Shown piece by piece: positions 3,989 through 32,240 of a stretch of DNA of 64,000 bases. The stretch is from contig CACEMW010000004.1 of assembly GCA_902560705.1 (NCBI GenBank), positions 878-64,877 on the forward strand, read 5' to 3'. The stretch comes from an uncultured Verrucomicrobiota bacterium. GTDB lineage: Bacteria > Verrucomicrobiota > Verrucomicrobiia > Limisphaerales > AAA164-E04. The notes beneath the pieces were generated by a model. The model saw only the letters and a program-made list of their open reading frames with translations. It was not told the DNA's origin and searched no databases. The first letter of the stretch is position 1. Every line of letters starts with the position of its first letter. Position numbers and translations under genes: made by a program.

Positions 3989-4453
3989 ATGAGTTTAACA
4001 AACGAAGAAATTCAAGCCGTTCAGTCAAGTTGGGAAAAATGTGTACCGATAGCAGATAAAGCCGCGGAACTCTTTTATGGAAAATTATTTGAATTAGATC
4101 CAAATCTAAAACCCTTATTCAAAGGAGATATGCAAGAACAGGGGAAAAAATTGATGACAATGATAACTGTAGCTGTGAATGGATTAAATGATTTAGAGAA
4201 AATTGTTTCTGCTGTTAAAGCTCTTGGGGTAAGGCATGTTGGATATGGTGTGGAAGATTCTCATTACGACACTGTAGGTAGCGCTTTGATTTGGACATTG
4301 GGGAAAGGTCTTGGAGAAGAATTTACAGACGCACTGAAGGCTGCTTGGATAAAGGTCTATACTCTTTTAGCAACAACAATGAAAGAAGCGGCTGCAGAAT
4401 CCATTGCGGCATCCAAACCTATACCGTGGCAACTCAAAACTTTTACCAAATGA
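3989..4453 (+). CDS. single-domain globin
   Basis: 154 aa. Pattern SW..v......aa.lFY..LFe.dP.lk.lF....m..Q..KLm.......l.dl......l..LG.rHv.YGV...hYd.Vg.aLi.tL is characteristic of bacterial single-domain/sensor-type globins. A good purine-rich stretch precedes the ATG. Confidence 0.8.
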   Translation: MSLTNEEIQAVQSSWEKCVPIADKAAELFYGKLFELDPNLKPLFKGDMQEQGKKLMTMITVAVNGLNDLEKIVSAVKALGVRHVGYGVEDSHYDTVGSALIWTLGKGLGEEFTDALKAAWIKVYTLLATTMKEAAAESIAASKPIPWQLKTFTK

Positions 4454-4644
4454 AACAAACTGCTATGGAATGGGCTGCGGAGTCGGTTCAAAATTAATCA
4501 AAATTTTTCAAAAAACCAGATAACGGTAGAAAAGGATATTTATGCTTTATTTATGATGCTAATGGCCATAAACAATCAAATAATTACTACAAAATTCGGA
4601 AAGGACACTAAGCCTTCGCATTGAATCTTTTTTATGCTATCCAA

Positions 4645-7973: not shown

Positions 7974-8049
7974 TATTTAATTTTCCGTTAAGTTTCTGTG
8001 CTTGTCCCTATTAAAGCTCTCGAGATTCTACAAAGTATCATCAAACCCA

Positions 8050-11336: not shown

Positions 11337-11516
11337 CCGTTCCCAAGTAATGTTATTTTACAAAAAAGCGTCTCAGCACGGCACACATCTAGAGGGTTCA
11401 AAAGGACCGCTACTGCCCGTGGTAGTTCCAAAGATTCGATTTCTTTTCCAAAAGAGGCCATTATTACGCTATTCTTTTCATTTAATTTTTATCCCCATTC
11501 TGCTATTATCAAACGT

Positions 11517-13439
11517 ATGCTTTCTTCACGCAGTCAAAGGATGCGCCTCCTCAGGGTTGCCGCCTTGACCTGTGCTCTATATTGCTCGCTGGTTTTGGGG
11601 GGAAAGGGCGAGAGCGAAGAGGACCTCAGACTGGAGGCCAAAAAGACCTTCAAGGAAAACGTGGAACCTTTCGTCAAGCAATACTGCACGCGTTGCCACG
11701 GAGGGGGAAGGGCTAAGGCAAATGTCAATCTTGAGGTTGATCTGAAGGCACCCGGGCGTGGCGTTGCCTTCCTTCATTGGAAAAAGGCGGTGGCCAATGT
11801 CAAGGTTCATGACATGCCACCCGAAGATGCCGCCAAACAACCCAGCAAAGAAGAACGGCTTCAATTCATTGAGTGGATTGATCAACTCAAGTATCTGAGC
11901 CCTGTAAATCCAGGCCCCTTTGTGATTCGTCGCCTGTCCACCACCGAATATGGCAACACCTTGCGCGATCTGTATGGTGTCGATCCGTCCATTGCAGCCC
12001 CCCTCCCGGAGGAGGTCCTTGGCGAGGGCTACCTGAATTCCATCTCCCCCATGCAATCTGAATTGTTCCTCGATCTTGCCAACAGGGTTGTGGAGCAGGT
12101 GGTGGCACCCGAGGGCAAAAGAGCGACAGACGTCCAGAGGCGCCTGTTTGGCAAAAAAACCCGTAAGGAGGAGGAGTATCAATATGCAGCTCGGGAGGTG
12201 GCGCGCAACCTGGCTAGGGATGCGTATCGGCGCCCTCCCACCAAAACGGAGCTGGACGTTCTCATGGATGTGTTTGGCCTGGCTCAAACCGAAGGCCTGG
12301 ATTACACGGCATCGCTTGCCATGATGCTCAAGGCGGTTCTGATTTCTCCGCAGTTTCTTTTTATCACGCCTTCCACGGAGATTTCAGCGGAGCAGGAGAT
12401 TGTACCCCTAGACGATCATCAACTGGCCTCCCGGTTATCGTATTTGCTCTGGGCATCTCCGCCAGACACAAAATTGTCAACCCTTGCCGACCAAGGGAAG
12501 CTCCACCATCCCAAAATTCTTCGAGCTCAGATAAAGAGACTCCTCAAGCACCCTCGCGCTAGGGCTTTGTTTGACGGGTTCGGCGCTCAGTGGTTGAGGG
12601 TAACTGATTTGAGACGCCAGGTTTTTGACCCAGAGCTCTTTCCTCAGATGACAGTGCAAATGAGGGAAGCCATGACGGATGAGCCTCGATTGCTTTTCGA
12701 AAACATCGTTCAAAAAAACCATCGAGTCATCCGTTTCATTGACTGTGATTACACTTATGTCAATGAACCACTCGCCAACCTGTATGGGATCAAAAAACAT
12801 ATCCGCGGGCCAAGGATGCGGCGTATCCAACTCGATAACCCCAACCGAGGCGGCATCCTTGGCATGTCGGCCACGCTGGCAGCCACTTCATTTCCTAACC
12901 GGACCAGCCCCGTTCGTCGGGGGGTCTGGGTGCTCGAACAGGTGCTTGGGGAACGCATCCCACCACCACCGCCAGATATTCCCGAGCTCAAGGATAAAGA
13001 ACACCCGGATGTAAAAGGCCTGACGCTTCGACAGAGAACAGAAGCCCACACCTCCGATCCCACTTGCGCCACTTGCCACAGGGTGCTAGACCCCATCGGC
13101 TTTGGCTTGGAAAACTTTGACGCCATCGGACGATGGCGCGAGGAGAATCATGAAGGAACCCCCATCGATTCAGCTGGGGAACTGCCCTCTGGTGAGACCT
13201 TCTCCTCCCCGGCCGAATTGAAAAATCTCCTGAAAACACGGGAGCCCGAATTGGCTCGGAACCTGACCGAACGATTCATGGCCTATGCCCTTGGCCGACA
13301 TCTGGAAGGTTATGACGAAGTCGTCATTGACCAACTAATGGCAAGGATTGCTGAAGACGACTACCGCGCACAGACCATCCTCACAGAGGTCATCACCAGT
13401 TATCTTTTCACTCATCGAGCCGTCGAAAAAATACTATAG
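11517..13439 (+). CDS. secreted DUF1587/DUF1592/DUF1595/DUF1588/DUF1585-family protein with an N-terminal CXXCH (PSCyt3-like)
   Basis: The ATG at 11517 gives a signal peptide ([20 protein letters not shown]). Motifs: [55 protein letters not shown] and [26 protein letters not shown]. Confidence 0.8.
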
Positions 13440-13461
13440 TCTCCCCTAACCACATAACATC

Positions 13462-14835
13462 ATGAACACCACAGAAGCCTTACATGCCCTCGACCGCCGC
13501 AGTTTCCTACGGGGCGTCGGCGTCACTCTCGCACTGCCGCTGATGGATTCATTTGCCTCTGCTGCCACACTCGCCAAACCACCCGTAAGGCTCGCCTTCA
13601 TGTACATGCCGCACGGCGTCATCATGGATCAATTCTGGCCGTCCAATCAGGAAACTTTCCTGAATGCACCCCCACCCATCATTCAGTCGCTGCAACCCGT
13701 CATCGATCAGTGCCTAATGATGAAAGGTATCTCGGGTGTTCCGATTGCGCCTTTCAACGGTGCCCCACATGCCCTTGAGTTATCGACCTGGCTGACCGGG
13801 AGGTTGCCCGACGCCGACTCGCGCGATCGCATCAACATTTCCATTTCGGCAGATCAGATCATGGCCAATTATGTGGGTGCTCAAACCTTGCTCCCCTCGC
13901 TTGAGCTGGCCACTATGCCGCAGACTTGGAAGGAGAATCAGGAAGGTCTGCATGAAGGCTACTACAATCACTGCAGTTTTAGATCTCCCACACAACCTGT
14001 GCCCGCTGAGACCGATCCCCGCAACGTCTTGAACCGGCTTTTCGGAAAACGCGGTAAAGACGCTAAAACCTCCCAGACCAACCCTCTGGACCGTAAGATG
14101 CTGGACCGAGTTCTCGAGGGTGCTCGTGACCTGCGTCGCACCCTGGCCCGGGGGGATCAGGAAAAGCTCGACGAATACTTGGACAGTGTGCGCTCGGTAG
14201 AACGCCGCATTGCGGCCATCGAAAGTCGCCAACAGGAAGCGGCTCTGGAGAAAAACGGAGTCCGCCCATCCAGACGCCACGCCACCGATTCAGCGCCCAT
14301 TGAAGTGAAAATCCCTGAGGGAGACAAACGCAGTGATTACATGAAGGTCATGTGCGATCTCACCGTCCTCGCCTTCCAGACCGATACCACTCGGGTGAGC
14401 ACCTATGTGGGATCGCGACCCAATGGGGCCTCTTACCCTGAACTTGGGTTCTCCAATCAGCACCACTCGCAAACCCACTATGGCAGCGATCAGGAAAAGA
14501 TTCGTAAGGTGGCAGCCATCAATCAATTCAACGTCGACCAATACGCTTATATGGTAAGGAAGATGAGCACGCTGAAAGAAGGTGAAGGCACCTTGCTCGA
14601 CAACTGCATCATGATGTGGGGTTCGGGGCTCGAAGACGGTGACAAGCACAAACGCGAAAACCTTCCTTTCATCATAGCAGGCAAAGGTGGGGGCTCTATC
14701 AAAACGGGACATTTTCTTACGGATATCCATGGAAATCAAGGGGATCTGCTTACGACCCTGCTTTCCTGCGCGGGCATCCCCCTCGACCGCTCGATTGGCA
14801 TTGCCACCAAACAAATCAATGAAATGAAGGCTTGA
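13462..14835 (+). CDS. DUF1552-family protein with Tat-type signal
   Basis: Contains [21 protein letters not shown], then [17 protein letters not shown] and [11 protein letters not shown]. It is the usual partner of the upstream DUF1592-type gene. Confidence 0.8.
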
Positions 14836-14879
14836 GTGCAAATATTTTGCCCACCAGAATCAAACCTAAACTGAAACTC

Positions 14880-15623
14880 ATGAAACCGAAACTGTTTCGC
14901 CGTAACGAGGCCTTCACCCTGATTGAACTCTTGGTAGTGATTGCCATAATCGCCATTCTGGCCGGCATGCTTCTGCCTGCCCTCTCCAAAGCCAAGGAAA
15001 AAGTTCGACGGATCAGTTGTCTCAACAACCTCAAGCAAATGGGATTGGGTTCGATGATGTATGGGCAGGACAACGACAAGGGATGGCTCTCGGGCACTCC
15101 GGACGATGGAAGCGACGATTTGTCCTGGCTGCACCCGACCTACATTCCAAGCGCCAATGCACAGTCGGTTTTCGTCTGCCCTTCCACCCAGAATTTCATT
15201 GGCACCAACACGGTCAGGATTCGTGGCAAAACAGTCTTGGCCGACTTACTCCGGCAAGCACCCTACAAACGCATGCGCAGCAGTCGAACGCGTGAGGCTG
15301 ACTTGCGTGGAGTGAGCTACGAGATTAATGCCTTCATGAACTTCAAGACCCGCAAAACCGAGCGATCGGTCCTCAATTGGGTGCACAAGGGGTCTGCCCT
15401 GGGCTTGAAAGGCAGAGTCGTGGGGCCCTCGGACATTTATTTGATTTTCGATGGTGACGGCCAGGGAGACGGAGCCCGCAACAATTATCCCGACCCCAAC
15501 GACAATCATGGCGAAGCTGGTACCAACTTTCAGATGTGCGATGGCAGTGCGAAATGGGTGCGGAAGGAAAACTACCTCCTCACCTACGAACTCTCTCAGG
15601 ACGAAAATCGATCCAGGCCTTGA
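14880..15623 (+). CDS. prepilin-type N-terminal cleavage/methylation domain protein, HX9DG (DUF1559-like) family
   Basis: Contains [30 protein letters not shown] and a C-terminal [18 protein letters not shown] (H-x9-DG). Confidence 0.75.
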
Positions 15624-15832
15624 GAAGCTTTAAGCAGCACGGGGGAGCAGGCTTAAAACCGCCAGAATTGGGCACTCGTAAGGTACCACGAATGGATATC
15701 CCTACGCAGGGCTGACTATATGAGCATCAACCCCATGGTAAAGGCTCCATGCCAGAATTTAGCTTTCCAAAAGCCCGACTCCAGAGGAATTACTGAGAGG
15801 GAAACCTGAGATTCTGGAGCTCCAGAACACCT

Positions 15833-16525
15833 CTAGAGATTTTGCTTCCAGAGAATCAAGTCATTGGAAAGTTCGTTTTCATCACTTGGCTTTAATGGGT
15901 AATGTTGGCGAAGTTTTTGACCACAAAGGCGAATGCCTTCCACCAGACCGTCTCCAAACTGGTTTGCCCTAAAGCCATCAATGATGGCATTCTTTACCTC
16001 CACAAAATCTTCATTCTTAAAATGCTTATTGATATCGGCATCGCCCATGACGAACACCATGCGCTCGAATGACGAAATAAAGATTATGACGCCTGTGGCA
16101 CCTTGGGTTCTTCCAACCCGATGGATTTGAAAAGCCTGAATTGCTCGTTCTCTGAGGCAGGATTCCATTTCCCTTTGGGAACAGAAAAGACGCCGGATCC
16201 ACCAGACACGACTTGCGAGAAAGGATCCACCGACAAATCCCAAAATAAGTATCAAAAGAATCTCAGACAATCCTAGCTGGAGGCTCGGACCACGCTGGGT
16301 ATGCCATGAGCCGTCCTCTAAAACGTCCTGAAAATTAAACCAGCAAACACTGAGCAGCCCAATGGACAAAACGAAGCCTGCAAGATCCTCCGCACGATTA
16401 TATTGACCACTGCTCTCTGTAAGCACAGGGACGATTTCTGCAGAGGTGTAAGTTTCAGCTTCAGAAACGGCCTCTCGAATGCGTCTCTTATCACTGTCGT
16501 CAAAAAAAGTATCGATATTTTTCAT
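15833..16525 (-). CDS. TPM-domain membrane protein
   Basis: The internal ATG at 16525 lies 4 nt after the upstream stop. Contains IREAVSEAETYTSAEIVPVL, two TM helices and then GATGVIIFISSFERMVFVMGD, a TPM/TLP18.3-like pattern. Confidence 0.55.
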   Translation of the reverse strand: MKNIDTFFDDSDKRRIREAVSEAETYTSAEIVPVLTESSGQYNRAEDLAGFVLSIGLLSVCWFNFQDVLEDGSWHTQRGPSLQLGLSEILLILILGFVGGSFLASRVWWIRRLFCSQREMESCLRERAIQAFQIHRVGRTQGATGVIIFISSFERMVFVMGDADINKHFKNEDFVEVKNAIIDGFRANQFGDGLVEGIRLCGQKLRQHYPLKPSDENELSNDLILWKQNL

Positions 16526-16529
16526 GCTC

Positions 16530-17342
16530 TTACCAGGAACCAGTCGCACCACCGCCACCAGAAAATCCACCACCAAAACTACCACCACCAAATCCATCAC
16601 TGTCACCAGAAGACGTGAGGATGACGTAAAATAGCCATCCAAGAATGGAAAAGACGGCCGTCCAAAATAGCCAAGCCCAACCAGAACTACCACGTCGGAT
16701 AAGCGACACGAAGGTGAAGCCGGCCAGGATGGGTAGCAAAACCATCAGTGCATAATGCCACGAAGGCCTGGGTGGAGCCGTTACGGTCTCTCCCAGAGCC
16801 ATTTGCGCCAAGGCGCGCGTCCCAGCCAGAATTCCCCCTTCGTAATCGCCCGCTTTGAAAAATGGAATGATGTGCTCGCTCATGATCGAGGCACAGAGAG
16901 AATCTTTTGCCCTACCAAACCCGGCACCCAATTCAATACGAGCTTTACGATCATCCACCGCGACCAACAAAAGGATACCCTTATTCCAATCAATATCCTC
17001 TGACCTCCCAACCCCCGCACCCCTGACAGTGACGCGTTGATGACCAATCCCCCACTCATCGTAGAGAATGCGTGCATAGGTCTCGATGGACATGCTGCCA
17101 GCCCCGTAGTCGTGCTGACTACCAATACCCACAACAATGATGGGAATAGCTCTCTCTTTGAGCACCTCTGTAAGTCGCACCTCAAGCTCAGACGCTGAAT
17201 CGGCCGAAAGAAGACTTGCTTCATCCGAAATGAAAGAGTCACCCGAGGGCTTTGGAGGAAAGCGAACCTTCGCCTCTGCAAATTCGGGAAGACCAAATAA
17301 GAAGATAGTCAAGAGGATGAGTTTCAGTAGGAAATGGCCCAT
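16530..17342 (-). CDS. TPM-domain protein, YgcG-like (signal peptide, C-terminal TM and Gly-rich tail)
   Basis: Signal peptide, then ISDEASLLSADSASELEVRL...IPIIVVGIGS and LLLVAVDDRKARIELG. The C-terminal TM helices are followed by GGGSFGGGFSGGGGATGSW. Confidence 0.7.
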   Translation of the reverse strand: MGHFLLKLILLTIFLFGLPEFAEAKVRFPPKPSGDSFISDEASLLSADSASELEVRLTEVLKERAIPIIVVGIGSQHDYGAGSMSIETYARILYDEWGIGHQRVTVRGAGVGRSEDIDWNKGILLLVAVDDRKARIELGAGFGRAKDSLCASIMSEHIIPFFKAGDYEGGILAGTRALAQMALGETVTAPPRPSWHYALMVLLPILAGFTFVSLIRRGSSGWAWLFWTAVFSILGWLFYVILTSSGDSDGFGGGSFGGGFSGGGGATGSW

Positions 17343-17522
17343 GGGAGCGGACAGAGTTTGGGAAAAAAGGATCGTTAACAGAAACCCCTTGATTGTAAAT
17401 TACATAATTCCGATGGCAGTGTAAGCGGTTAAGCAGTCGCGTAATAAACCCCACTTTACCAGCCAACTATAAACACACACCAAAGGTGAACACCGATAGA
17501 AGCGCGGTCTCAGTCAATCGAG

Positions 17523-20500
17523 TTAGTTCTCTTGGGAATCGACTGCCTCCAGTTGATCGAGATACCAAGCCGCCCTCTCATTTAATTTCGCGGCTCCTTC
17601 TGGATCAACCTTAGACAAGTTATCAAGCTTGGCAGCGTATTTTTGAACGATGAACGGGTCCGATGGCCTGAGAACCAAAGCCTGCTCAAGCGCATCTTTG
17701 GTGTTTTGTGTGACAAGAAAATCCAAATACCAATCTTTGCTCAAGTCACTTCCGGGGTGGATTTGGGTAAGGTATCCTTTTTGCCGCCACCTAAACCATT
17801 CATCCAGCTCCTCGCTTTCAAACACAAAAGAGTCGCTCGAAACTCGATCATCTTGTTGCAATATTTTTAATGCATTACTTTGATCTTGATAAACACGGGA
17901 AGTCGATATTGCATATTTTTCCATAGTATCTCGATCACTATTAGCTATCGAAAACTTGCTCCCTATCGGCCACAAAGAAATAGAGTTTTCGGCATAGATG
18001 TTCGCCAAATAGGCAAAGTTTGGATTGGATTTTATTTTCGAATAAAAGAAGTCACCAATTAGAGGCTGCTGAAAGGGGCCATCAACATATCTACCTGTAG
18101 AAAGACTAAATGCGTAAATAGCGCGATCCCGACTAAATGTATAAATCTGATCTGGATCGTGAGGATCAATACCGACTCCTATAGCCCAATCATCGACATT
18201 TAGTGTTTTTACGTTTTCCCCGCTCTTTGTGTCCCATATTTTGGTGGTTTTGTCCCTGGAACCGGTGATTAGATATTTACTGTCAGGAGTAAAGATCATA
18301 TCCATAACCCCACTAAAGTGGGAAAGCTCATGGAGCAATTCGCCAGTTTCTACGTCCCACACCATTGGCTTAAGTGCATCAGTGCCTATCCCAGTTGAAG
18401 TTGCAAACATTTTGCCGTCAGGCGAAAAGCAGATCGGAGATTTAAAAAAGAACCCATACTTCAGAGGGTCGTATTTCAAAGCCTTAGAGCGAACATCGAA
18501 AATTCGCGCACGACCATCTTGGCAAGCTGTAAGTATATGGTCATCATCAAAGCTAAATTCTAAATTAATTATCATACCCTTGTGAGAAGAGGACTCGAAG
18601 GATTTTTCATACTTGTTTCCGCGTAACTTTAAAACCGTGAAGTTGAAAGTATATCTATTCACGAACGCTATATGCTGTGAATCAGGTGACATTTTAATCA
18701 CATTGGTAAAATCTGGAAGATCCCCCTCAAATAATACTTCGAGATTATCAGAATCGTAAACATGCCACTTCCGAAAGTTCCCAAGGCCCTTTCCTTCTGC
18801 GACAAACAATTTTTTTCCTTCATCTACAAACATAGAGACTCTGGCTTCATCGGAGAGTTTAACTTTGCTGATGAGACGAATATCAGACAATGCCCACAAC
18901 TTAATTTCTCCATCCTTGGACACGGATACTAATTTTTGGCCATCCGGACTCAAATCAAAATCGAGTATTTGATTATCATGCGTGAGTAGGATGGGTTCAA
19001 TATTTGGGCTTTCCGTTTCAAACTCAAAAATCTTACCTTCTTTGTTCAAAACTCGGATACGCTTACCGTCCCTAGAAAATGATATTGCTCCAGGGTCAGA
19101 CCCTATGTTTGTAGGGCTATTAAGCAATTTACCATTATTCAAGTCCCAAACCCACAAATCATTGTGATCGGTTGCGCTTACTAACTTCATCATGTCTGGG
19201 CTGAAAACTGAGTGCCATGGGCCTCCATCGTGTGTGAGAGGCTGAATGGTCTCTTTCCCTGACTTTAAATCCCAAATTCTAACTGTCTGGTCAATAGACG
19301 GAGTGGCCAGTAGCCTACTGTCAGGGCTGATGCTTGCGTCCACAACAATACGAAAATGAGCACGTGATTCCTCCCACAAAAGCGTACCCATTTTTGCGTC
19401 AAAAACTTCCAAAGCACCTTGGATAGGGCTTCCCCCGTAGGATACTAGATACTTACTGTCAGGAGAATATTTACAGTAAACATGATTCCTCATATCACCG
19501 TCGGGTGTAGCGTAAATATTCTTAATTTCCAGACTGTAGACATTAATTTGATATAACTTGAAATAGGAGCCCTCCTCATTTTCTACTATTGCAATATTGC
19601 TACCGTCAGAGCTGATCCTTATATCGGCCACGCGACTATCAAGCTTATATTTCTTTAAGATTTTATTGTTGAAATCGAATATAAGCACCTCCCCCATGTT
19701 GGTGCCGACGCATATCAACCCCTTTGTTACCGCGAAACCAGTAATAAAATTATCAACTTCAATGCGCATTATACCATCAAAGGCTTCCAAACCTATAATG
19801 TCAGCCACGTTCGAGCCATTTAGATCGATGGCTGCAACGATCAAAAACTTAGAATCACTGCTGAACCTCAGCCCTTCAATTTGCTTGTATTTTTCGCTCT
19901 CGAAAACTGTTTGCCGGTTTTCCGTATCCACTATCTTGAAGAATGAATTATCGGTTTCATCATGCGCTGCTGCGTAATAAGTCAAATCAGGAGAACATTG
20001 TGATCCAAGAAACCACCTTACTTTAGCCTCAGAACCCAATTCAAAAATTTTGCCTCCATAATTCAGAAAAGGGCTATGGTCTAAAGTTGATTTTAATTTT
20101 TGGGAAAAGTAATCGATGTTAGGATTCTTACCACTTTCTGCAGCCATGTAAGCGAGCGCCTTCTGCGGGAGTCGCTCCATTGACATCTTATCGGCACTTT
20201 CAGCAACGGAATAACTGAGATTATTTTGGGCCTGTTTCTTGGCTGTGTCGGCTTCAAAAGCCATAAAAACAGCAACGCAGGCCAAAACAAAAAGCACTAG
20301 GGCAAATACTTTATTTCTTTTTGCCGATCTTTTTTGGATTTCCGCTCTCTGTTTTTCCGCATTTGCCAAGGCTCTGGCCTGTTCCAATTCTCGCTTGCGC
20401 GCCTCCTCCTTGGCTCGCTGCTCGGCCTCAAAGTCTTGCTTGGACTCATCAAGAAACCGCATTGCCAAGTCGAACGAATCATTGATTCGTGCCCCCCAGT

Positions 20501-21827
20501 TTCCATTGGGTTTGTTCTTTTCCCTCCAGGAAAGGGCAATTTTCAGGTCTGGATCCCGATAAAAACCAGCCTCCCCTAAACTATGAAGTTCAGCTGTTTC
20601 ACATAGACGAATGTAAATGCGTGCTGAGTCTGCTTCCTCATTGACCCACTGCTTGAGCCGGACCCATACGCGCATCAAACTTTCATGCGATATGTCAATG
20701 ATGACATGGTCATTAATTTTGACCGTTTCACCCGGCATGATAAAGGTTCGCCCGGTAGGTCGATAAGCATCAATGACGGTAAGCATTTTTTCACGCTCAT
20801 GCCCGGTAATCTCCTCTATCTCCCCAAAGGGCAGTGGTCGCCGAATCCCACGCCCATCAGCTTGTTTTTCGGTGATTGCCTTGAACAACTTCATGCATAG
20901 CAGGCGGTGTTGATCATGCGGAAGCGCTTGGTAAACTTCATCCGCATGTCGCGAAAGAGCTTCAGCCATACGCCCAATGGCATCGTAGTGCTCAAGGTCC
21001 ATGGGCACTGATTTATCCGTGTGCCCTTCCCAATAATCCCACATACGCATCAGTGCATGCTGCAATATGGGGAGCTGATCTGGATCATCCCCGATATCGT
21101 TGAGCAATTGTTGCTTTAGACGAGGCGATATTTCGCCACCCCCAACTTTGACCGGGCCTTCGATGGCTCGCGCCCGTTGTTTGCGATTAAGCCTTGGTAT
21201 GAGGTATTCCCCCTCGTTGACCGCCTCAGCCAAGCCCTTGAACTCCGCGCAATCTCCCAAAAAGTCGGATCGCATCGTGAGAATGATGAAGATGGGCACT
21301 TCAGATTGACGGGTAGTTTCCAGCAAAAGCTGAATAAAATGGGCCGCTTCTTGGCTCGCCTTGCTGCCACTTTGACGGAATCGGAAAATCTCCTCAAACT
21401 GATCCACCAAAAGCAGTAGATTGGCACCTTTTTCTATGGCTGATTGACGATACGCTTCAATCAAACCAAGGCCACTCCGACTTAACGTTGCGCGGGTTTG
21501 CAAAACATTCTCCTCATTCTCATCACCGAATAAACCCGATTCAACCAGGGAATCGGCCAAATTGGTCAAAGGGTCTCCACCTGGCCGCATGATGGCAAGC
21601 TCCCAGGCAATGGAGGTGCTGGTCATGGTCCCTCCATGGAGTTCGGGCAGCAACCCCGCCCGAACAAGAGAGGATTTCCCACTCCCTGAAGCACCCACTA
21701 CGGCTAGAAAACGAGTATTACCCAAACGCTGCAACAATTGTGAAACTTGTTCTTCCCGGCCAAAGAAAAGAAAATTCTCATCGAATTGAAATGGGCGCAG
21801 ACCGGGGAATGGATTACCGTCAAACAT
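17523..21827 (-). CDS. STAND-type P-loop NTPase with coiled coil, single TM helix and ~900-aa WD40-like repeat region (cassette A)
   Basis: 1434 aa. NTPase motifs: NPFPGLRPFQFDENFLFFGREEQ, Walker A GASGSGKSS (21672..21695), LLLLVDQFEE and TMRSDFLG. Coiled coil EAEQRAKEEARKRELEQARALANAEKQRAE. Hydrophobic span VFALVLFVLACVAVFMAF (20256..20309). Many blades follow (DQTVRIWDLKSGK, SKDGEIKLWAL, CQDGRARIFDV, SRDKTTKIWDTKSGE). Confidence 0.85.
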   Translation of the reverse strand: MFDGNPFPGLRPFQFDENFLFFGREEQVSQLLQRLGNTRFLAVVGASGSGKSSLVRAGLLPELHGGTMTSTSIAWELAIMRPGGDPLTNLADSLVESGLFGDENEENVLQTRATLSRSGLGLIEAYRQSAIEKGANLLLLVDQFEEIFRFRQSGSKASQEAAHFIQLLLETTRQSEVPIFIILTMRSDFLGDCAEFKGLAEAVNEGEYLIPRLNRKQRARAIEGPVKVGGGEISPRLKQQLLNDIGDDPDQLPILQHALMRMWDYWEGHTDKSVPMDLEHYDAIGRMAEALSRHADEVYQALPHDQHRLLCMKLFKAITEKQADGRGIRRPLPFGEIEEITGHEREKMLTVIDAYRPTGRTFIMPGETVKINDHVIIDISHESLMRVWVRLKQWVNEEADSARIYIRLCETAELHSLGEAGFYRDPDLKIALSWREKNKPNGNWGARINDSFDLAMRFLDESKQDFEAEQRAKEEARKRELEQARALANAEKQRAEIQKRSAKRNKVFALVLFVLACVAVFMAFEADTAKKQAQNNLSYSVAESADKMSMERLPQKALAYMAAESGKNPNIDYFSQKLKSTLDHSPFLNYGGKIFELGSEAKVRWFLGSQCSPDLTYYAAAHDETDNSFFKIVDTENRQTVFESEKYKQIEGLRFSSDSKFLIVAAIDLNGSNVADIIGLEAFDGIMRIEVDNFITGFAVTKGLICVGTNMGEVLIFDFNNKILKKYKLDSRVADIRISSDGSNIAIVENEEGSYFKLYQINVYSLEIKNIYATPDGDMRNHVYCKYSPDSKYLVSYGGSPIQGALEVFDAKMGTLLWEESRAHFRIVVDASISPDSRLLATPSIDQTVRIWDLKSGKETIQPLTHDGGPWHSVFSPDMMKLVSATDHNDLWVWDLNNGKLLNSPTNIGSDPGAISFSRDGKRIRVLNKEGKIFEFETESPNIEPILLTHDNQILDFDLSPDGQKLVSVSKDGEIKLWALSDIRLISKVKLSDEARVSMFVDEGKKLFVAEGKGLGNFRKWHVYDSDNLEVLFEGDLPDFTNVIKMSPDSQHIAFVNRYTFNFTVLKLRGNKYEKSFESSSHKGMIINLEFSFDDDHILTACQDGRARIFDVRSKALKYDPLKYGFFFKSPICFSPDGKMFATSTGIGTDALKPMVWDVETGELLHELSHFSGVMDMIFTPDSKYLITGSRDKTTKIWDTKSGENVKTLNVDDWAIGVGIDPHDPDQIYTFSRDRAIYAFSLSTGRYVDGPFQQPLIGDFFYSKIKSNPNFAYLANIYAENSISLWPIGSKFSIANSDRDTMEKYAISTSRVYQDQSNALKILQQDDRVSSDSFVFESEELDEWFRWRQKGYLTQIHPGSDLSKDWYLDFLVTQNTKDALEQALVLRPSDPFIVQKYAAKLDNLSKVDPEGAAKLNERAAWYLDQLEAVDSQEN

Positions 21828-21839
21828 GGTATTGATGGA

Positions 21840-23324
21840 TTATTGCTTGATTTGGGTGACGAATGGTTCGAGGGCGCTGAAGTCATTGCCGGGAATTTGA
21901 ATGATGTCAGCCAAATGAGAACGAAACCTCTCTTTGTGTCTACTTTCAGGAGGAGCCACAAGAATCGAAGTAGCTGTGATGGGTTTGGACCGCCCAAACC
22001 CAGAGGCTTTGATGAGGTTATTGAGTTTCATATTTACCCACTGTCGTGTGGCAGAACCAAAATAAATAAGGACCCCATCACAAATGCGGAGGTTTTCTAT
22101 GTGGGCCTCAGAAACCTCTGTTTCGCTTCCACTGAATAAGGGGATTACGACCTCCAACCCTTGATCAAAAAGGTAATCCTCGATGGCTTCGATCTTATCC
22201 TCGTCATCTGGTGGTGCCATCAAGTAGACCGTCGGCGGGCCTGCATCAGCACCATGATTCAACCCCTTATCGACCTTGTTCTTTTCTTCAGTAAAGTGAT
22301 CGATGACCAAGCCCTTAAATATTTCGAATGTCCCTTCAACAAAGTCCGTTTTCTCGTAGGTAGCAGGATTCACACGCAAGCCTTCAATGAACTTGGCTTG
22401 CCGTTCTTCCTTTGCCTCCAAACCTGACGGTAGCCAGATCAGTCGTTCAAGGCCGCGATTGGCTGACTCATCTGCTGCAAGACTCAACTGGGTCTCTATG
22501 ATAGACTCCGACCCAGCCTCAGGGATCATACCATAGTTTGCACCCAGTAAATGAATGGCCACATCCGCGTGTTTGAGATACTCCCGCACTTGTTCTTTGA
22601 CCTCAAGAGCATTCAATGGAAGATGGCTGTCCGGGAGAATCATGTACCCACGTTCACGAAGATCTCGCGCAATGTTGTCACGATCAGCACTTCGATCCCC
22701 TGAAACAGTAGCCAGGTAGACGGTCTTGCCGAGAGAAACTCTCAGCGCCTCAGGATTTGAAGGGGGAGTGCTACCTGCTCGCGATTTCTTTAAAATCTCG
22801 CAGATTTCGTATGCGAGATCATAGATCCGGCTGAAGTAATTCTGCTTGGCTTCCTTTCCGAAGGCTTCGTTATATTCCACAATTTTGCCATTTTCGTCGA
22901 AATCGTAGAAATTGAACCCAAGAACACTGCCGAAAATTTTCTGCAGTTCTGGCTGAAGTTCTTCGGCATCATAGGGCGTCTTAACGACCTTGAGAATGCG
23001 GGACTTCCCATCAAAGGCGACACCCCCGTTTACTTCCGCGCTTTGGTAAAATTGGGTGATTTCCTTCACGCACCACTCAGACTTGATGTAGCGGGGGCTG
23101 AGAATGGAAACCATGAGTTTGGTATGGTCAAACTGACTAAGAATTTTCTGGTCGAAAATATCATTGCCGGTGAGTTTCTGATCACGCCACACGCGTGGCT
23201 GCTCCCCCATAAGCTGAGCAAGGCGATTTTCCAAAATACGGTGAAACTCCGTAATCCAACCTTTCTCATCATCAGAGATCGAGAGATTGTCGATATGAGC
23301 GTAACTGATGAATAGATCATTCAT
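21840..23324 (-). CDS. TIR-domain protein with two further Rossmann-like (DUF4062/TIR-like) modules (cassette A)
   Basis: Start taken at MNDLFISYAHIDN (23324) by analogy with the paralogue. The TIR block is ILSPRYIKSEWCVKEI. Module 2 is TVYLATVSGDRSADR...HLLGANYGMIPE. Module 3 is TVYLMAPPDDEDKIEAIEDYLFDQGLEVVIP...DGVLIYFG. The gene ends 12 nt before the STAND start. Confidence 0.8.
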   Translation of the reverse strand: MNDLFISYAHIDNLSISDDEKGWITEFHRILENRLAQLMGEQPRVWRDQKLTGNDIFDQKILSQFDHTKLMVSILSPRYIKSEWCVKEITQFYQSAEVNGGVAFDGKSRILKVVKTPYDAEELQPELQKIFGSVLGFNFYDFDENGKIVEYNEAFGKEAKQNYFSRIYDLAYEICEILKKSRAGSTPPSNPEALRVSLGKTVYLATVSGDRSADRDNIARDLRERGYMILPDSHLPLNALEVKEQVREYLKHADVAIHLLGANYGMIPEAGSESIIETQLSLAADESANRGLERLIWLPSGLEAKEERQAKFIEGLRVNPATYEKTDFVEGTFEIFKGLVIDHFTEEKNKVDKGLNHGADAGPPTVYLMAPPDDEDKIEAIEDYLFDQGLEVVIPLFSGSETEVSEAHIENLRICDGVLIYFGSATRQWVNMKLNNLIKASGFGRSKPITATSILVAPPESRHKERFRSHLADIIQIPGNDFSALEPFVTQIKQ

Positions 23325-23815
23325 GAAAACAAAAGCACAACCTAGCGATGAATTATCTCCATCAGATCCGCCATGAAAAAGTCTTTTTTTTGTGAAAAAG
23401 TTCATGTGGAACCGCTACCCCTCTGGCACAGCTACCTTTTTTTGGCGGTATGGGAAGACGAGATGCGTGTGTTTCACATGCAGCGTTGGAAGGATTATGC
23501 CTATTGCACCCATTGCGATCGTTCTCTTCAAGAGGAAGAATGCCGTCTGAAAATCACTTATGGAGCCGGAAACAGGATCACCAAAACCTATTGCAATTAC
23601 TGTGAGAAGAGAGCCATTCGCAATCCTAAAGGTTCATCTAAAAGCTATGTCAGGAAACAACGCTGAAACAAGTTGTATACCCTTAATAAAACTTTCTTTT
23701 GAATACAATTTTTAGTTTTGAAAAGGCAAAACGGTTCTTCTAACTTTTGAAAGATACGTCTTTCTGGCAGATCACATTAATATAACCAGGAATACTCAAC
23801 TCTCCCCGAATCCGC
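23325..23815. promoter_or_regulatory. divergent control region between the two TIR-STAND cassettes
   Basis: A 491-bp gap between head-to-head TIR genes, AT-rich at 23667..23815. No promoter motifs were confidently identified. Confidence 0.35.
23463..23666 (+). CDS. small zinc-ribbon protein (67 aa), hypothetical
   Basis: MRVFHMQRWKDYAYCTHCDRS...(26)...CNYCEKRAIRNPKGSSKSYVRKQR has two CxxC pairs and a basic tail. It is the internal start of ORF 23373..23666. There is no homology evidence, so the coding status is uncertain. Confidence 0.3.
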   Translation: MRVFHMQRWKDYAYCTHCDRSLQEEECRLKITYGAGNRITKTYCNYCEKRAIRNPKGSSKSYVRKQR

Positions 23816-25318
23816 ATGAACGATATATTCATCAGTTACGCTCACATGGACGATCAAGTCCTGGATGAAGACCAAAAGGGTTGGATCACCAAATTTCATC
23901 GGGTCTTGCGTGTTAAATTGGGCCAGCTCATGGGTGAACCCGCCAAAATATGGCGCGATGAAAAACTCTCAGGCACTGACGTCTACGACGACAAGATCGT
24001 CAGCGAATTCAAGAAGGCCAAGGTCATGATCTCCGTCCTCAGCCCCCGCTACATCAAGTCGGAATGGTGCAATCGCGAGCTGAACGAATTTTATGAAGCA
24101 GCCGAAAATGAGTCCGGAATCCGTGTGGGAGAAAAATCACGGCTTATCAAGGTGGTCAAGACGCCCTTTGATAACGACCAGGCAGCAGAGCATCTCCCCA
24201 AGATTTTTGAAGCTATCTTGGGGTTTGATTTTTTTGAGCAGGACCCCGAGTCCGGTCGTATTGTCGAATTCGACGAGGCATTTGGGGTGAAGGCCAAGCA
24301 GAATTACTATTCGCGTATCTATGACCTTGCTTCTGAAATCGCCGATATTCTCAAGCACATGGAGGGTGGTTCCTCGAGCACTCCACAGACCGAGCCTCTG
24401 GCCAAAACAGGTAAGACGGTCTATCTGGCGGCGGTGACCTCCGACATTCAAACGGGACGGGAAAAACTTCTCCGAGAACTGACCGATCGCGGTCACCGTG
24501 TATTGCCTGACCGCCCCCTCCCCAACGCGGGTCAGGAATTAATGGAAGCCATTGGTAACCTGTTGAGGCAGTCCGACTGCTCCATTCACATGGTGGGTCA
24601 GAAGTATGGTATGATCCCTGAAGACAGCGCGCACTCCATCGCAAAATTACAGAATGATCTAGCCACGGAACGCATTGAGAACCATCCCGAATTTCATCGT
24701 TTCATCTGGATGCCGCAAGCCGTCTTGACCGATGATGACCGCCAGCGCCAATTTATTACCGAATTAAGGGAAGACCCACGTGCCCATACCGGTGCCGATT
24801 TGTTGGAAGATTCCCTCGATCATTTTCGAGACTATGTGGTGGAAAAGCTCAAGCCCAAACCCAAATCGAAAACACTCTCAAGCCTGACAAGCTCCGACAT
24901 TGAGGCAAGTGGCAACTCTGCCGTTTATCTGATCTACGATATGAAGGATGACGAGGTTGTTGCCCCTCTTGAAGATTACCTTTTCGACCAAGGTTTGGAG
25001 GTCATGTTGCCTACGTTCGATGGTGAGGAGGCTGACATCAAGCGAGCCCACATTGAAAAGATGATCCACTGCGACGCCGTCCTGATCTATTACGGACAGG
25101 CCGACCGATCGTGGGTCGACATGAAACTGATGAATCTGATGAAGGCACCGGGGTATGGCAAGGAAAGCCCTTTCAAGGCACAAACCGTGTATTTGGCTCC
25201 TCCCATGGATCGGCGCAAGCAGCGTTACCGCACCCACTCAGCGGAAGTGGTTGTCCAGGAAAGTGAGGCCTTTGAACCCTCGCTCCTGGATTCCTTCGTT
25301 TCCACCCTCAAGTCCTAA
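23816..25318 (+). CDS. TIR-domain protein with two further Rossmann-like (DUF4062/TIR-like) modules (cassette B)
   Basis: Contains MNDIFISYAHMDD and VLSPRYIKSEWCNRELNEF (candidate catalytic Glu at 24077..24079). Module 2 spans about 24410..24715 (TVYLAAVTSD...HMVGQKYGMIPE). Module 3 spans about 24917..25150 (AVYLIYDMKDDEVVAPLEDYLFDQGLEVMLP...DAVLIYYG). Confidence 0.85.
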   Translation: MNDIFISYAHMDDQVLDEDQKGWITKFHRVLRVKLGQLMGEPAKIWRDEKLSGTDVYDDKIVSEFKKAKVMISVLSPRYIKSEWCNRELNEFYEAAENESGIRVGEKSRLIKVVKTPFDNDQAAEHLPKIFEAILGFDFFEQDPESGRIVEFDEAFGVKAKQNYYSRIYDLASEIADILKHMEGGSSSTPQTEPLAKTGKTVYLAAVTSDIQTGREKLLRELTDRGHRVLPDRPLPNAGQELMEAIGNLLRQSDCSIHMVGQKYGMIPEDSAHSIAKLQNDLATERIENHPEFHRFIWMPQAVLTDDDRQRQFITELREDPRAHTGADLLEDSLDHFRDYVVEKLKPKPKSKTLSSLTSSDIEASGNSAVYLIYDMKDDEVVAPLEDYLFDQGLEVMLPTFDGEEADIKRAHIEKMIHCDAVLIYYGQADRSWVDMKLMNLMKAPGYGKESPFKAQTVYLAPPMDRRKQRYRTHSAEVVVQESEAFEPSLLDSFVSTLKS

Positions 25319-25344
25319 TTTGTTAAACTCATTTTCTTTCGACC

Positions 25345-27831
25345 ATGCCAGCTCAAGCTCACAATCCATTCCCAGGCCTGCGACCTTTTGAATTCGACGA
25401 CAACCCGCACTTCTTTGGCCGCGATGAACAAACCACCGAACTGACCACTCGGCTGAGGAAAAATCGTTTCGTGGCAGTGGTCGGAACCTCAGGCAGCGGA
25501 AAGTCCTCCCTGGTACGTGCCGGCCTGCTCCCTGAGTTACTCAGTGGAACCATGTCCGGTGCCGGTTCCAGCTGGGAAACGACCATCATGCGCCCCGGCG
25601 GAGATCCCTTGACCAATTTGGCGCAGAGCATGGTCGATGCTGACTTATATGATCCTGATGAAGAAGACATCGCCGCTCAAGTAAGAGCTACTTTGACCCG
25701 CAGTGGGCTGGGACTGGTCGAAGCCATTCGCCAGAGCGATCTTTCTCAAGGGACCAACTTTCTTCTAGTCGTCGATCAATTTGAGGAAATCTTTCGATTT
25801 CGACGTAGCGAGGATGCCACTGACGAGCAGGCAGCCTTTTTTGTCAACCTGCTGCTGGAGGCCAGTGCGCAAAGCGATTTACCACTCTATGTCATTATCA
25901 CGATGCGGTCCGATTTCCTGGGAGAGTGCAGTCAATTTCCACGGTTGGCAGACACCGTCAATGAGGGCGAGTTTCTCATCCCACGCCTGAATCGGGATCA
26001 ACGTAAGGAAGCCATCCTGGGGCCGGTCAAAGTCGCGGGAGGCAGCATGACGGATCGTCTGCTCTTGCGCCTGCTCAATGATATCGGAGACGATCCCGAT
26101 CAGCTCCCCATTCTCCAACACGCCCTCATGCGTACTTGGGACCTGTTCGCCGCGCATCATGAAACGGGAGATCTCGACCTGGAGCACTACCATGCCACCG
26201 GAGGGATGAATGAGGCCCTCAGTCGACATGCTGATGAGGTATATGGAGACCTACCGGATCCAGAGCACCAGCGCATTGCACAAAAGTTATTCAAGTCGCT
26301 AACCGAAAAGGTTGATGCTAACCGAGGCATACGTCGGCCCATGGCGTTGAAGGAATTGCAAGAGATCTGCGGAGGGGAAGAAGTGCACCTGCGATCGGTC
26401 GTCGATGCCTTCCGGAGGACAGGATGCACCTTTCTCATGCCAGCCGGAGAGGCAGAGATCACACTGAAAACCATCATCGATATCTCCCATGAAAGCCTGA
26501 TGCGGGTGTGGAAAACGTTGAAAGACTGGGTCGATAATGAGGCCCAATCTGCCAAAATCTACCGCCGACTGGCCGACACTGCCAGTCTCTACGCAGATGA
26601 CAAGGCTGGCTTGTATCGCGACCCGGATCTGGGGATTGCCCTGGCATGGCGGCAAGAAAACCAACCCAACCAGACCTGGGCGGACCGGTATTACCCAGGT
26701 TTCCCGGAGGCCATGGCGTTTCTGGAAGCCTCTCAGACAGAAGCTCAACGGGAGGCCAGGGAAAAGGAAGAAGCCCGCAAACGTGAACTAGCACAGGCGA
26801 AAGCACTGGCTGAGGCAGAAAGGGAAAAGGCCGAATCTGAACGACGGGCTGCCATTAAACTGAAACGCCTAATTGCCGGGCTCACAATAGCTATGGGAAT
26901 CGCAATCCTGAGCACGATAATGGCATTCTCGGCCATGAAGAGAGCGAAAGCTAGTGAGGAAAAAGCAATTTTGTCTTTGGTGAGCAGCCAAGAATTATCA
27001 GTTGATGATGTCCGCAAAGCGCTGAATATCATCCATCGAGACGGTCTCGATTTCAAAATGCTATTAACTTCATTGCGACAGAAGGCTTGGGCTTATTACA
27101 CAAGTGGAAATTTAGTTTCTGCAAATGTTGCGATGGAAGCAGCAACCGAGATCAGCCCTAACCATAAAGATTCCCAATTATTACTAGGCTTAATAAAAGC
27201 TAAAAAAGGAGACATAAGCGACTGCCTTGATAAAATAGAACTCTTTACAAACTTGGAAGCAGAGAACCCAAGTAATGATGGATGGGCGACGATTCGTTGG
27301 ATGAAAGGAGCTGCAGTGTTGGGAGTAATTGGAGACGCAGAGATCCAAAAGCAATACTGCGAAACGATGTTCAAGGCATTGCCAGTTCCAGATGATATAA
27401 TTGGTGAACGATGCGCGAAAGCTGCTTTAATATTAAAAGTGCCGGATAATCTTTACCATAAAGCCTATGACTATGCTTTGGTCGCAAACGAAGAAAGGGA
27501 GGGCTCTGATTCCTCGGGTTTGGTGGCATGGAACAGGTGTACAATGGGACTGGCTAGTCTTAGGCTAAACAAGTTAACCGAAGCCTCAAGATGGTTGGAT
27601 AAATCCATGGATGCCATGAGTGGTAACAATCTTTTGGTTCGGGGCCTTAATGTAGCCATACGCGCTCTCGTGGAACTTAAGATGGGGAACATTTTGGAGT
27701 CAAAGCAAACCTTAGACAGTGCGAAAGAAATCTACAACAATATAGATAAGAGCCATGGCGGCTGGCACGATGTACTTTTTGTGGACCTACTAATATCTGA
27801 AGCTGAAGATTTAATCCAAAAACAAAATTAA
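25345..27831 (+). CDS. STAND-type P-loop NTPase with coiled coil, single TM helix and helical (TPR-like) C-terminal region (cassette B)
   Basis: 828 aa. NTPase motifs: NPFPGLRPFEFDDNPHFFGRDEQ, Walker A GTSGSGKSS (25483..25506), LLVVDQFEE and TMRSDFLG. Coiled coil REAREKEEARKRELAQAKALAEAEREKAE. Hydrophobic span LIAGLTIAMGIAILSTIMAFS (26869..26931). About 300 aa of helix-rich repeats follow. Confidence 0.85.
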   Translation: MPAQAHNPFPGLRPFEFDDNPHFFGRDEQTTELTTRLRKNRFVAVVGTSGSGKSSLVRAGLLPELLSGTMSGAGSSWETTIMRPGGDPLTNLAQSMVDADLYDPDEEDIAAQVRATLTRSGLGLVEAIRQSDLSQGTNFLLVVDQFEEIFRFRRSEDATDEQAAFFVNLLLEASAQSDLPLYVIITMRSDFLGECSQFPRLADTVNEGEFLIPRLNRDQRKEAILGPVKVAGGSMTDRLLLRLLNDIGDDPDQLPILQHALMRTWDLFAAHHETGDLDLEHYHATGGMNEALSRHADEVYGDLPDPEHQRIAQKLFKSLTEKVDANRGIRRPMALKELQEICGGEEVHLRSVVDAFRRTGCTFLMPAGEAEITLKTIIDISHESLMRVWKTLKDWVDNEAQSAKIYRRLADTASLYADDKAGLYRDPDLGIALAWRQENQPNQTWADRYYPGFPEAMAFLEASQTEAQREAREKEEARKRELAQAKALAEAEREKAESERRAAIKLKRLIAGLTIAMGIAILSTIMAFSAMKRAKASEEKAILSLVSSQELSVDDVRKALNIIHRDGLDFKMLLTSLRQKAWAYYTSGNLVSANVAMEAATEISPNHKDSQLLLGLIKAKKGDISDCLDKIELFTNLEAENPSNDGWATIRWMKGAAVLGVIGDAEIQKQYCETMFKALPVPDDIIGERCAKAALILKVPDNLYHKAYDYALVANEEREGSDSSGLVAWNRCTMGLASLRLNKLTEASRWLDKSMDAMSGNNLLVRGLNVAIRALVELKMGNILESKQTLDSAKEIYNNIDKSHGGWHDVLFVDLLISEAEDLIQKQN

Positions 27832-27955
27832 TTTGCTACACATGATTCTTTAATTACAACTGCTTCATCGTCGATCGTTTATAATAAAAGATTCAAAGGC
27901 AACCTTACTTACTAAGTTTACAAAAATGATATCTCGGGCCACTGTTTCGTCGACC

Positions 27956-32040: not shown

Positions 32041-32240
32041 GATCAAAAATCCACTGAGTTCATCATCCGTTGCGCTGTAGGCATTCACCGATGTGACACA
32101 CCACTTCAACAAAATAGATCCGCTTGCCACTTGAAACAAGGCCCTTTTCCGCCTCGCTCATAGAGTTGTTCACTTCATGGCCTGGATTGAGCAAACTGCA
32201 TCAACCGCTGCCTGGCCTGACGGCGAAGAGATAGTTGAAA

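Follow-up and report, generated by a model that had tools for sequence, protein, structure and literature searches.

The DNA examined here is a stretch of 64,000 nucleotides (the window; contig C4, CACEMW010000004.1, positions 878-64877) from a metagenome-assembled genome (MAG) of an uncultured Verrucomicrobiota bacterium, which comprises 2.75 Mb in 157 contigs, is 52% complete, has a guanine-plus-cytosine (GC) content of 0.513 and belongs among marine Verrucomicrobiota by the names of its close protein hits. Within the window, positions 17523..27831 are taken up by a divergent pair of cassettes, A (minus strand) and B (plus strand). Each consists of a TIR-domain gene (TIR-A, TIR-B) and a gene for a STAND NTPase (STAND-A, STAND-B), in which an N-terminal NTPase module is followed by a hydrophobic helix and a C-terminal domain that is called the sensor below (Table 1). 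Two further cassettes, C and D, were located on contig C14, so that the genome holds four cassettes of the TIR + nSTAND1 type. The NTPase parts of STAND-A and STAND-B were 53% identical as far as the hydrophobic helix and unrelated beyond it, and the TIR-A and TIR-B proteins were 45% identical. The sensor of paralogue C was of the WD40 type, and that of paralogue D comprised a propeller together with F5/8C and LamG domains.

Table 1. Positions of the cassette genes, their modules and the segments exchanged between strains, in window coordinates (aa, amino acids)
Feature	Position	Strand	Description and basis
TIR-A (P0003)	21840..23405	-	521 aa by longest open reading frame (ORF); TIR_2, DUF4062 (NIR/DrHyd), third Rossmann-like module
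STAND-A	17523..21827	-	1434 aa; start 12 nt past TIR-A end
STAND-A nSTAND1 NTPase module	20589..21827	-	aa 1-413; PF20703, Walker A; predicted cytoplasmic
STAND-A linker and charged coiled-coil stalk	20310..20588	-	aa 414-506, last residues KRSAKRNK; from translation
STAND-A putative transmembrane helix	20256..20309	-	aa 507-524; hydrophobicity, insertion energy
STAND-A sensor, AT-rich	17526..20255	-	aa 525-1434
STAND-A sensor, juxtamembrane helices	20064..20255	-	AlphaFold2
STAND-A sensor, two WD40 propellers	17967..20063	-	AlphaFold2
STAND-A sensor, C-terminal helical domain	17526..17942	-	AlphaFold2
TIR-B (P0004)	23816..25318	+	500 aa; TIR_2 and DUF4062
STAND-B	25345..27831	+	828 aa; 26 nt past TIR-B end
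STAND-B nSTAND1 NTPase and coiled-coil stalk	25345..26868	+	NTPase aa 1-419, stalk aa 420-508; PF20703; GC 0.55-0.58
STAND-B putative transmembrane helix	26869..26937	+	aa 509-531; hydrophobicity, insertion energy
STAND-B sensor, AT-rich	26938..27831	+	TPR-like alpha-solenoid, aa 553-827
STAND-B replaceable cassette	26874..27955	+	helix, sensor and 3' spacer; blastn with L035
Block missing from contig L035	15635..23434		TPM-domain gene pair (15833..17342) and entire cassette A; blastn

Both NTPases belong to the nSTAND1 family (PF20703, Pfam curated cut-off 27.1 bits). STAND-A matched the profile at 312 bits (E 1e-93, profile positions 1-369 of 379) and STAND-B at 335 bits (E 2e-99, positions 1-374 of 379), while paralogues C and D scored 331 and 330 bits. 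The Walker A motif was present as GASGSGKSS in STAND-A and GTSGSGKSS in STAND-B. No NACHT domain (PF05729) was found among the best 25 of 51 matches for STAND-A or in the complete list for STAND-B. With the PADLOC models, the matches were confined to P-loop-length hits to AbiLi and mads (E 1e-4 to 1e-6), with no Avs match.

The partner genes encode two putative effector domains each. TIR-A scored 52 bits for TIR_2 and 25.6 bits for DUF4062, and TIR-B scored 67 and 29.0 bits, both DUF4062 scores being above the curated cut-off of 24.7 bits. Read from the sequence, the glutamate of the WCxxE motif expected of TIR NADases is kept (SEWCVKEI in TIR-A, SEWCNREL in TIR-B), its catalytic role resting on the literature on plant and bacterial TIR domains. 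In Avs2, Vulcan and Vesta, DUF4062 has been shown experimentally to act as an NADase effector (preprint 10.64898/2026.09.04.749371). Searching the PDB by sequence returned no relative of the TIR protein and P-loop matches only for STAND-B. In distant Verrucomicrobiota homologues, effector domains are fused to the N-terminus of nSTAND1 itself, namely DUF4062 in L040:1-3402 (25.9 bits) and TIR_2 in L028:2608-9369 (82 bits), which implies that the two genes of each cassette are functionally linked. A second DUF4062-nSTAND1 fusion, L043:1-3396, scored 21.5 bits, just below the Pfam cut-off; all three fusion proteins retained the helix behind the NTPase.

The helix itself could be delimited precisely. 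In STAND-A, the basic stretch KRSAKRNK (aa 499-506) is followed by VFALVLFVLACVAVFMAF (aa 507-524, nt 20256..20309), exactly where the first-pass annotation of this DNA, made from the letters alone, had placed a basic motif and an 18-residue hydrophobic span. In STAND-B, RRAAIKLKR precedes LIAGLTIAMGIAILSTIMAFSAM (aa 509-531, nt 26869..26937); the motif and the start at 26869 had likewise been recognized, and the end was corrected from 26931 to 26937. The Kyte-Doolittle 19-mer maximum was 2.72 for STAND-A, the sole window in that protein above 1.6, and 2.21 for STAND-B. Insertion energies, approximated by an additive sum on the 2005 Hessa scale, were about -1.6 kcal/mol for STAND-A and about -1.05 kcal/mol for STAND-B, and the second-best window in either protein came to +6 kcal/mol or worse.

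A set of 124 close homologues, comprising the four paralogues and 120 database proteins, was used to follow the helix across the family. All 124 had a hydrophobic span of 17-23 residues at about aa 500-540, with a second peak in three of them. The sequence of the helix was free to vary within this set and its hydrophobicity was kept; the 15 residues on the N-terminal side held a mean of 5.6 lysines and arginines (K+R), vs 2.9 on the C-terminal side. A helix 366-462 residues past the P-loop was also present in all 12 evaluable distant nSTAND1 genes among 400 sampled genomes of the phylum. From its occurrence in all the close and all the distant homologues, the predicted membrane helix is an old and general feature of this nSTAND1 branch.

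The sensors behind the helices were modelled with AlphaFold2. The STAND-A sensor (pLDDT 90, pTM 0.85) was predicted to begin with three helices (aa 527-584), followed by about 58 strands that form 14-15 WD40 blades in two propellers (aa 589-1287) and by a helical C-terminal domain (aa 1296-1433), so that the run of about 900 aa of WD40-like blades proposed at first shrinks to aa 589-1287, with helices on either side. The STAND-B sensor was modelled as a 13-helix TPR-like solenoid (aa 553-827, pLDDT 85-95), in agreement with the helical repeats already read from its translation as far as 27831. Foldseek matched the STAND-A sensor to tandem WD40 proteins including Apaf-1, and its best match to the STAND-B model was 6mfv, a STAND protein with TPR (E 1.6e-6, with low TM-scores). 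Paralogue D and many homologues carry other domains behind the helix, among them LamG (56-79 bits), DUF1080 (71 bits), PA14 (35 bits) and F5/8C. DUF1080 is the 3-keto-disaccharide hydrolase family, and LamG, DUF1080, PA14 and F5/8C domains are almost always extracytoplasmic in bacteria.

The base composition of the genes changes at the helix. Over whole domains, GC fell from 0.504 in the NTPase part to 0.417 in the sensor part of STAND-A and from 0.548 to 0.425 in STAND-B, and the corresponding values at third codon positions (GC3) were 0.504 and 0.418 for STAND-A and 0.589 and 0.415 for STAND-B; the AT-richness of the sensor DNA, including the tail of STAND-B, which had first been read off sample lines, was thus borne out. 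Codon permutations matched the observed differences in GC or GC3 in 0-2 of 10,000 trials. The GC3 step was larger in paralogues C (0.66 to 0.35) and D (0.58 to 0.36), so that all four paralogues have it, and the sensor halves rank within the lowest 4-6% of the ORFs of the genome by GC3. A maximum-likelihood change-point was fitted to 13 genes from 6 genomes; in nine of them (L023 and L024 being near-identical copies), the all-position change-point fell at most about 25 codons from the helix start, and the GC3 change-point of paralogue D lay within 7 codons of the helix. The drop thus begins close to the helix in all four paralogues, as it does in several orthologues. Three of the 13 genes, all from single-copy genomes, had no GC step.

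A genome of different composition gave the same picture. In genome G022, which has about 64% GC around its loci, GC3 fell from 0.85 to 0.40 in one orthologue and from 0.67 to 0.30 in another. NTPase GC3 was 0.50-0.66 in the present genome and 0.67-0.85 in G022, with sensor GC3 at 0.30-0.42. It follows from the steps in G022 that the NTPase half tracks the composition of the host and the sensor half does not.

Two explanations of the step were tried and rejected. Protein location was rejected as the cause of low GC, since ORFs with a signal-peptide-like start had a median GC3 of 0.560, cytoplasmic ones 0.565 and multi-span ones 0.582 (as classed by a crude predictor) and since twelve distant nSTAND1 genes that bear the transmembrane (TM) helix lack the step. 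Amino-acid composition alone was also insufficient: the share of the residues F, Y, M, I, N and K (FYMINK) rose from about 0.21 to 0.31, yet GC3 went down by 9 to 30 points. Hypermutation by a diversity-generating retroelement (DGR) was considered as well and rejected because 15000-28500 contained no repeat pair; this region had neither direct repeats of at least 30 nt nor a DGR template/variable pair, and the ORFs examined in it included no reverse transcriptase, although no search was aimed at one.

Two side observations concern composition and gene integrity. Positions 1-8000 of the window (GC 0.36-0.39) are among other strongly AT-rich blocks of the genome with GC3 of 0.22-0.31, and the ORFs lowest in GC3 are concentrated on a few contigs (C52, C48, C75, C78), as expected of flexible islands. 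The nSTAND1 NTPase parts of L023:3146-7310 and L024:1860-6023, from two genomes, were 98% identical; one gene of the pair is intact (1387 aa) and the other is split into ORFs of 752 and 675 aa, which represents a frameshift, a pseudogene or a sequencing error.

Direct evidence for exchange came from comparison with related contigs. Contig L035 (ENA, 145 kb) was aligned to the window with blastn and matched 11473-15634 at 91%, 23435-26873 at 92.9% and 27956-31653 at 94%, with no similarity to 26874-27955. In place of that segment, L035 carries 3450 nt with a GC of 0.41 that encode a helix and a DUF1080/Ank sensor. The left break lies four bases into the STAND-B helix and the right break at the end of the convergent neighbour gene; at the protein level, STAND-B and P0115, the Ank/DUF1080 sensor variant, are 92% identical over aa 1-508 and unrelated beyond. 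L035 also has 80 unrelated bases in place of the 7.8 kb at 15635-23434, which hold the TPM-domain gene pair (TPM_phosphatase matches of 82 and 36 bits) and cassette A. The TPM pair is found behind STAND-A in L030-L033 and not in L034, and thus accompanies cassette A in some strains only.

At the A locus, contigs L030 and L031 matched the window at 94-99% nucleotide identity in the TIR gene, in the NTPase part and in most of the flank downstream, and at only 57-78% across roughly 17600-20400. Nonsynonymous (dN) and synonymous (dS) divergence between STAND-A and its L030 counterpart was estimated by the Nei-Gojobori method. In the NTPase part dN was 0.009 and dS 0.10, and in the sensor part dN was 0.155 and dS 1.72, which is 17 times the NTPase dS; dN/dS was about 0.09 in both. 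The difference in dS implies that the sensor alleles are far older than their surroundings or were imported, and the sensor alleles are, judging from these ratios, under purifying selection and not merely relaxed.

At a third locus, contigs L054, L055 and L057 were 94-95% alike over the upstream gene and the NTPase part up to aa 514-538, continued into three unrelated sensor classes (GC 0.354, 0.463 and 0.423) and aligned again at 80-85% soon past the stop codon. Immediately behind the swapped sensors comes a small gene encoding about 100-117 aa (L054:4596-4949, L057:4902-5252, L055:4952-5248); it sits where similarity resumes and has a weak DUF6717 match in two of the three.

The same pattern was seen across the family. 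Among pairs with NTPases at least 95% identical, the median product of sensor identity and coverage was 37, and the sensors were unrelated in 18%. On an NTPase tree of 38 proteins, the seven sensor classes required 20 changes, compared with a minimum of 6 and a shuffled mean of 24.4, and sensor classes are thus placed almost at random on the NTPase tree. Recent sensor transfer between the sampled genomes was considered and rejected, since the sensor halves were more diverged than the NTPase halves and fourfold sites were saturated. No orphan sensor fragments were found in the one spacer searched, on C14.

Unrelated or anciently diverged sensors thus occur in strains whose NTPase, TIR gene and flanks are about 93-97% identical. 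We conclude with high confidence that the stretch beginning at the helix evolves as a unit of its own and is exchanged between related strains, and its AT-rich composition marks this exchangeable unit. The earlier suggestion that sensor modules were acquired or exchanged separately from the NTPase core stands as far as exchange is concerned, on the evidence of L035, the dS values and the locus with three sensor classes; a foreign AT-rich donor is not shown by these data, and none was found for the A-type sensor among 300 genomes of the order.

The AT-richness fits a mobile pool of sensor cassettes with a composition of its own that outpaces amelioration, or decay in place, in which sensors too divergent to recombine would miss GC-biased gene conversion and codon selection and drift towards AT. 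We regard drift in place as a serious contender with somewhat less than an even chance, and it rivals only the claim that sensors were acquired from elsewhere, with the NTPase half keeping the composition of the genome. The step lies at the end of homology and is not scattered through the NTPase part, NTPase GC3 follows the host while sensor GC3 stays low, and the equal dN/dS of the two halves indicates that the sensor is not simply decaying, all of which suit AT-richness arising in place. The donor search points the same way: among 300 genomes of the order, relatives of the A-type sensor were limited to G022 (65% identity) and a weak 28% match. However, unrelated sensors replace one another at one locus, so import does occur; the allelic cassettes at the three-class locus differ in sensor GC; and distant TM-bearing nSTAND1 genes lack the step though their sensors are presumably variable too.

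The surroundings of the cassettes were also inspected. Two copies of a Planctomycete-type PSCyt/PSD pair (DUF1592/1588 and others) with DUF1552 (HXXSHH) flank the cassettes at 13462-15623 and 27956-32139, and these conserved flanks could act as homology arms in the turnover of the island. A small ORF with a CxxC...CxxC pattern at 23463-23666 had no Pfam match and was not called as a gene in L031 or L035; the intergenic region around it was 81-85% conserved at the nucleotide level, below the genes on either side. Promoter and terminator scans gave matches at chance level only.

From the domain content and layout, the following model is proposed. The window would hold two of the four TIR + nSTAND1 conflict cassettes of the genome, probably directed against phages, in which the first gene would encode an effector of the NAD-cleaving type (TIR + DUF4062/NIR) and the second a receptor-like STAND NTPase. 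The P-loop module and the charged coiled-coil stalk would lie in the cytoplasm, one signal-anchor helix would cross the inner membrane, and the sensor would stand in the periplasm, as two WD40 propellers with a helical cap in A and as a TPR-like solenoid in B. An envelope-side cue, such as phage parts at entry, envelope damage or foreign surface proteins, may bind the sensor and cluster the receptors, whereupon the STAND modules would oligomerize beneath the membrane and switch on the TIR/NIR partner, so that NAD would be depleted and the infection aborted. We hold the receptor model as a whole, including conflict role, topology, mechanism and exchangeable sensor unit, with moderate confidence, all steps past ligand binding being inferred.

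Besides the donor search, several points weigh against this model. PADLOC has no model for a TIR + nSTAND1 system, and the PDB holds no solved relative of nSTAND1 by sequence. The Foldseek matches of the STAND-A sensor were all cytoplasmic eukaryotic proteins, and WD40 and Ank repeats of the canonical kind typically belong to proteins of the cytoplasm. The activation step is conjectural as well, since the intramolecular release of autoinhibition that operates in soluble STAND proteins cannot be passed on through a single helix.

A role in immunity is itself open to challenge, as the cassettes might be envelope signalling switches with a housekeeping or regulatory function, in which the TIR/DUF4062 partner would be a scaffold or signal generator. 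The TPM-domain gene pair that travels with cassette A and the lack of a PADLOC match would suit such a role, which we nevertheless consider unlikely. The family is patchy, occurring in 10 of 40 relatives and in 13 of 400 genomes of the phylum; half a genome has four of these cassettes, each with a different sensor; strains differ in whether they carry cassette A; and the sensor alleles are ancient and reassorted. Together, these features form the signature of a conflict system and argue against housekeeping, as do the glutamate retained in the TIR motif and the experimentally shown immune NADase activity of DUF4062 (preprint 10.64898/2026.09.04.749371).

The topology was deduced from the proteins themselves. 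The NTPase modules of STAND-A and STAND-B must be cytoplasmic, judging by the absence of a signal peptide on a 500-residue module and by its need for nucleotide. Given one full span and a cytoplasmic NTPase, the C-terminal sensor would lie outside, and this single span, the location of the NTPase, the charge bias of the flanks and the lectin-type domains in homologues make an N-in/C-out topology with a periplasmic sensor the best reading and a likely one. As for the WD40, TPR and Ank repeats, a cytoplasmic location would suit them just as well.

Instead of crossing the membrane, the helix might simply tether the protein to the inner face, or it might be a buried or oligomerization helix, with a cytoplasmic sensor that reads ligands in the cytoplasm as in Avs and bNACHT proteins. 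STAND proteins that sense in the cytoplasm usually do so through WD40, TPR or Ank repeats. The flank behind the STAND-B helix is also basic, as had been pointed out at the outset, with 4 K/R after the helix against 6 before it. In the AlphaFold2 model of STAND-B, a long stalk helix (aa 453-498) is followed by a low-confidence stretch, with confidence low around aa 496-518, and then by a helix (aa 516-545) packing against nothing. We nonetheless judge such an arrangement improbable. The 18-23 residues are uniformly hydrophobic, with a low hydrophobic moment in both helices (0.15-0.38) and a negative insertion energy, which suits a full span and not an in-plane helix or hairpin. Hydrophobicity is kept across homologues while the sequence of the helix varies, one span with a cytoplasmic NTPase puts the C-terminus outside, and lectin-type LamG, PA14, F5/8C and DUF1080 domains lie behind the helix in homologues. 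Finally, although the genome is an incomplete MAG and the comparison contigs all come from metagenomes, it is hardly credible that the GC step and the swaps are assembly chimeras joined at the conserved NTPase region, since all four paralogues, three other genomes and five independent ENA/JGI contigs show the step, reading frames are open across every junction, similarity resumes past each sensor at the same locus, and chimeric joining would depend on sequence shared at the helix, a point by which identity has already gone.

The architecture as such is already catalogued. The nSTAND1 family was named by Kaur et al. 2021 (eLife, PMC8195603), in whose supplement the string 'nSTAND1+TM+BetaPropeller' occurs 278 times, 'nSTAND1+TM+TPR' 22 and 'TIR+DrHyd' 92. 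Their main text mentions nSTAND1 once, in another context, and a search of it for 'transmembrane' returned nothing on the nSTAND1+TM layout (PMC8195603). The present genes agree with those architectures in the PF20703 domain, in having a TM helix between the NTPase and a repeat sensor, and in the TIR and DUF4062 (DrHyd) effector domains, whereas the layout appears there in supplementary rows only and neither the GC step nor the allelic replacement of sensors was found there. The first-pass statement that characterized STAND immune sensors are soluble holds for those studied experimentally but does not extend to the TM-bearing STAND proteins catalogued in print.

The cassettes can be compared with several known systems. 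With Avs and bNACHT proteins they share the tripartite set of effector, STAND NTPase and variable repeat sensor, with TIR or DUF4062/NIR as the effector; they differ in the NTPase clade, in carrying the effector on a separate gene and in the membrane helix between NTPase and sensor. All characterized Avs/bNACHT members sense intracellular ligands, and a 2026 survey of STAND sensors covers recognition within cells and makes no mention of the periplasm. The periplasmic idea is nonetheless raised for sister families: for bNACHT proteins with TM regions, Kibby et al. predicted that signals are sensed in the periplasm or within the membrane, and Dore et al. 2024 predicted periplasmic lectin domains for some DGR targets. 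The PCTM systems, which were predicted computationally, combine a ParA NTPase, a C-terminal TM segment, a periplasmic domain and an upstream effector, and their authors propose that they sense periplasmic perturbation (preprint 10.64898/2026.10.19.760177). PCTM systems and the present cassettes have in common an upstream effector gene followed by a predicted cytoplasmic NTPase, one TM helix and a putatively periplasmic TPR or other sensor, and differ in that the PCTM NTPase is of the ParA/SIMIBI and not the STAND type.

The mode of evolution has a parallel elsewhere. Rhs/CdiA polymorphic toxins evolve by C-terminal displacement, in which a conserved core and a fixed junction are retained and a low-GC variable C-terminus is swapped between strains. 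A genome-typical core and an exchanged C-terminal part of lower GC are found here too, a likeness in mode of evolution only; in Rhs/CdiA the exchanged tip is a toxin and the junction a peptide motif, whereas a sensor and a membrane helix take those places in the present genes. The marks of Rhs/CdiA proteins (YD or FHA repeats) were not among the Pfam matches, and the C14 spacer held no orphan tips. Toll-like receptors offer an analogy in their outside repeat sensor, single membrane helix and TIR-based signalling inside; their sensor is not homologous, and here the TIR domain lies on a separate protein with an NTPase switch between. Neither the compositional step bounded by the helix nor the allelic replacement of whole sensors was found in print, and the helix-bounded exchange of cassettes appears to be new.

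To our knowledge, every characterized bacterial STAND or NLR-like sensor reads intracellular ligands. If the sensors described here are periplasmic, the use of the STAND chassis extends to surveillance of the envelope, perhaps before a phage genome enters or while it does so. We tentatively suggest that these proteins may be bacterial pattern-recognition receptors that detect invaders outside the cytoplasm, with an NLR-type switch wired like a Toll-like receptor and a specificity re-tooled by swaps of sensor cassettes at the helix. The strains also provide natural domain swaps, in which the same NTPase, TIR partner and flanks are combined with TPR, Ank/DUF1080 or different WD40 sensors, and these offer a handle on specificity; if the pattern-recognition reading is true, strains with the same chassis and different sensors would be a ready-made test of what each sensor recognizes. 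The sharp GC step at the helix, for its part, is a simple sequence mark by which exchangeable sensor cassettes may be found in other genomes.

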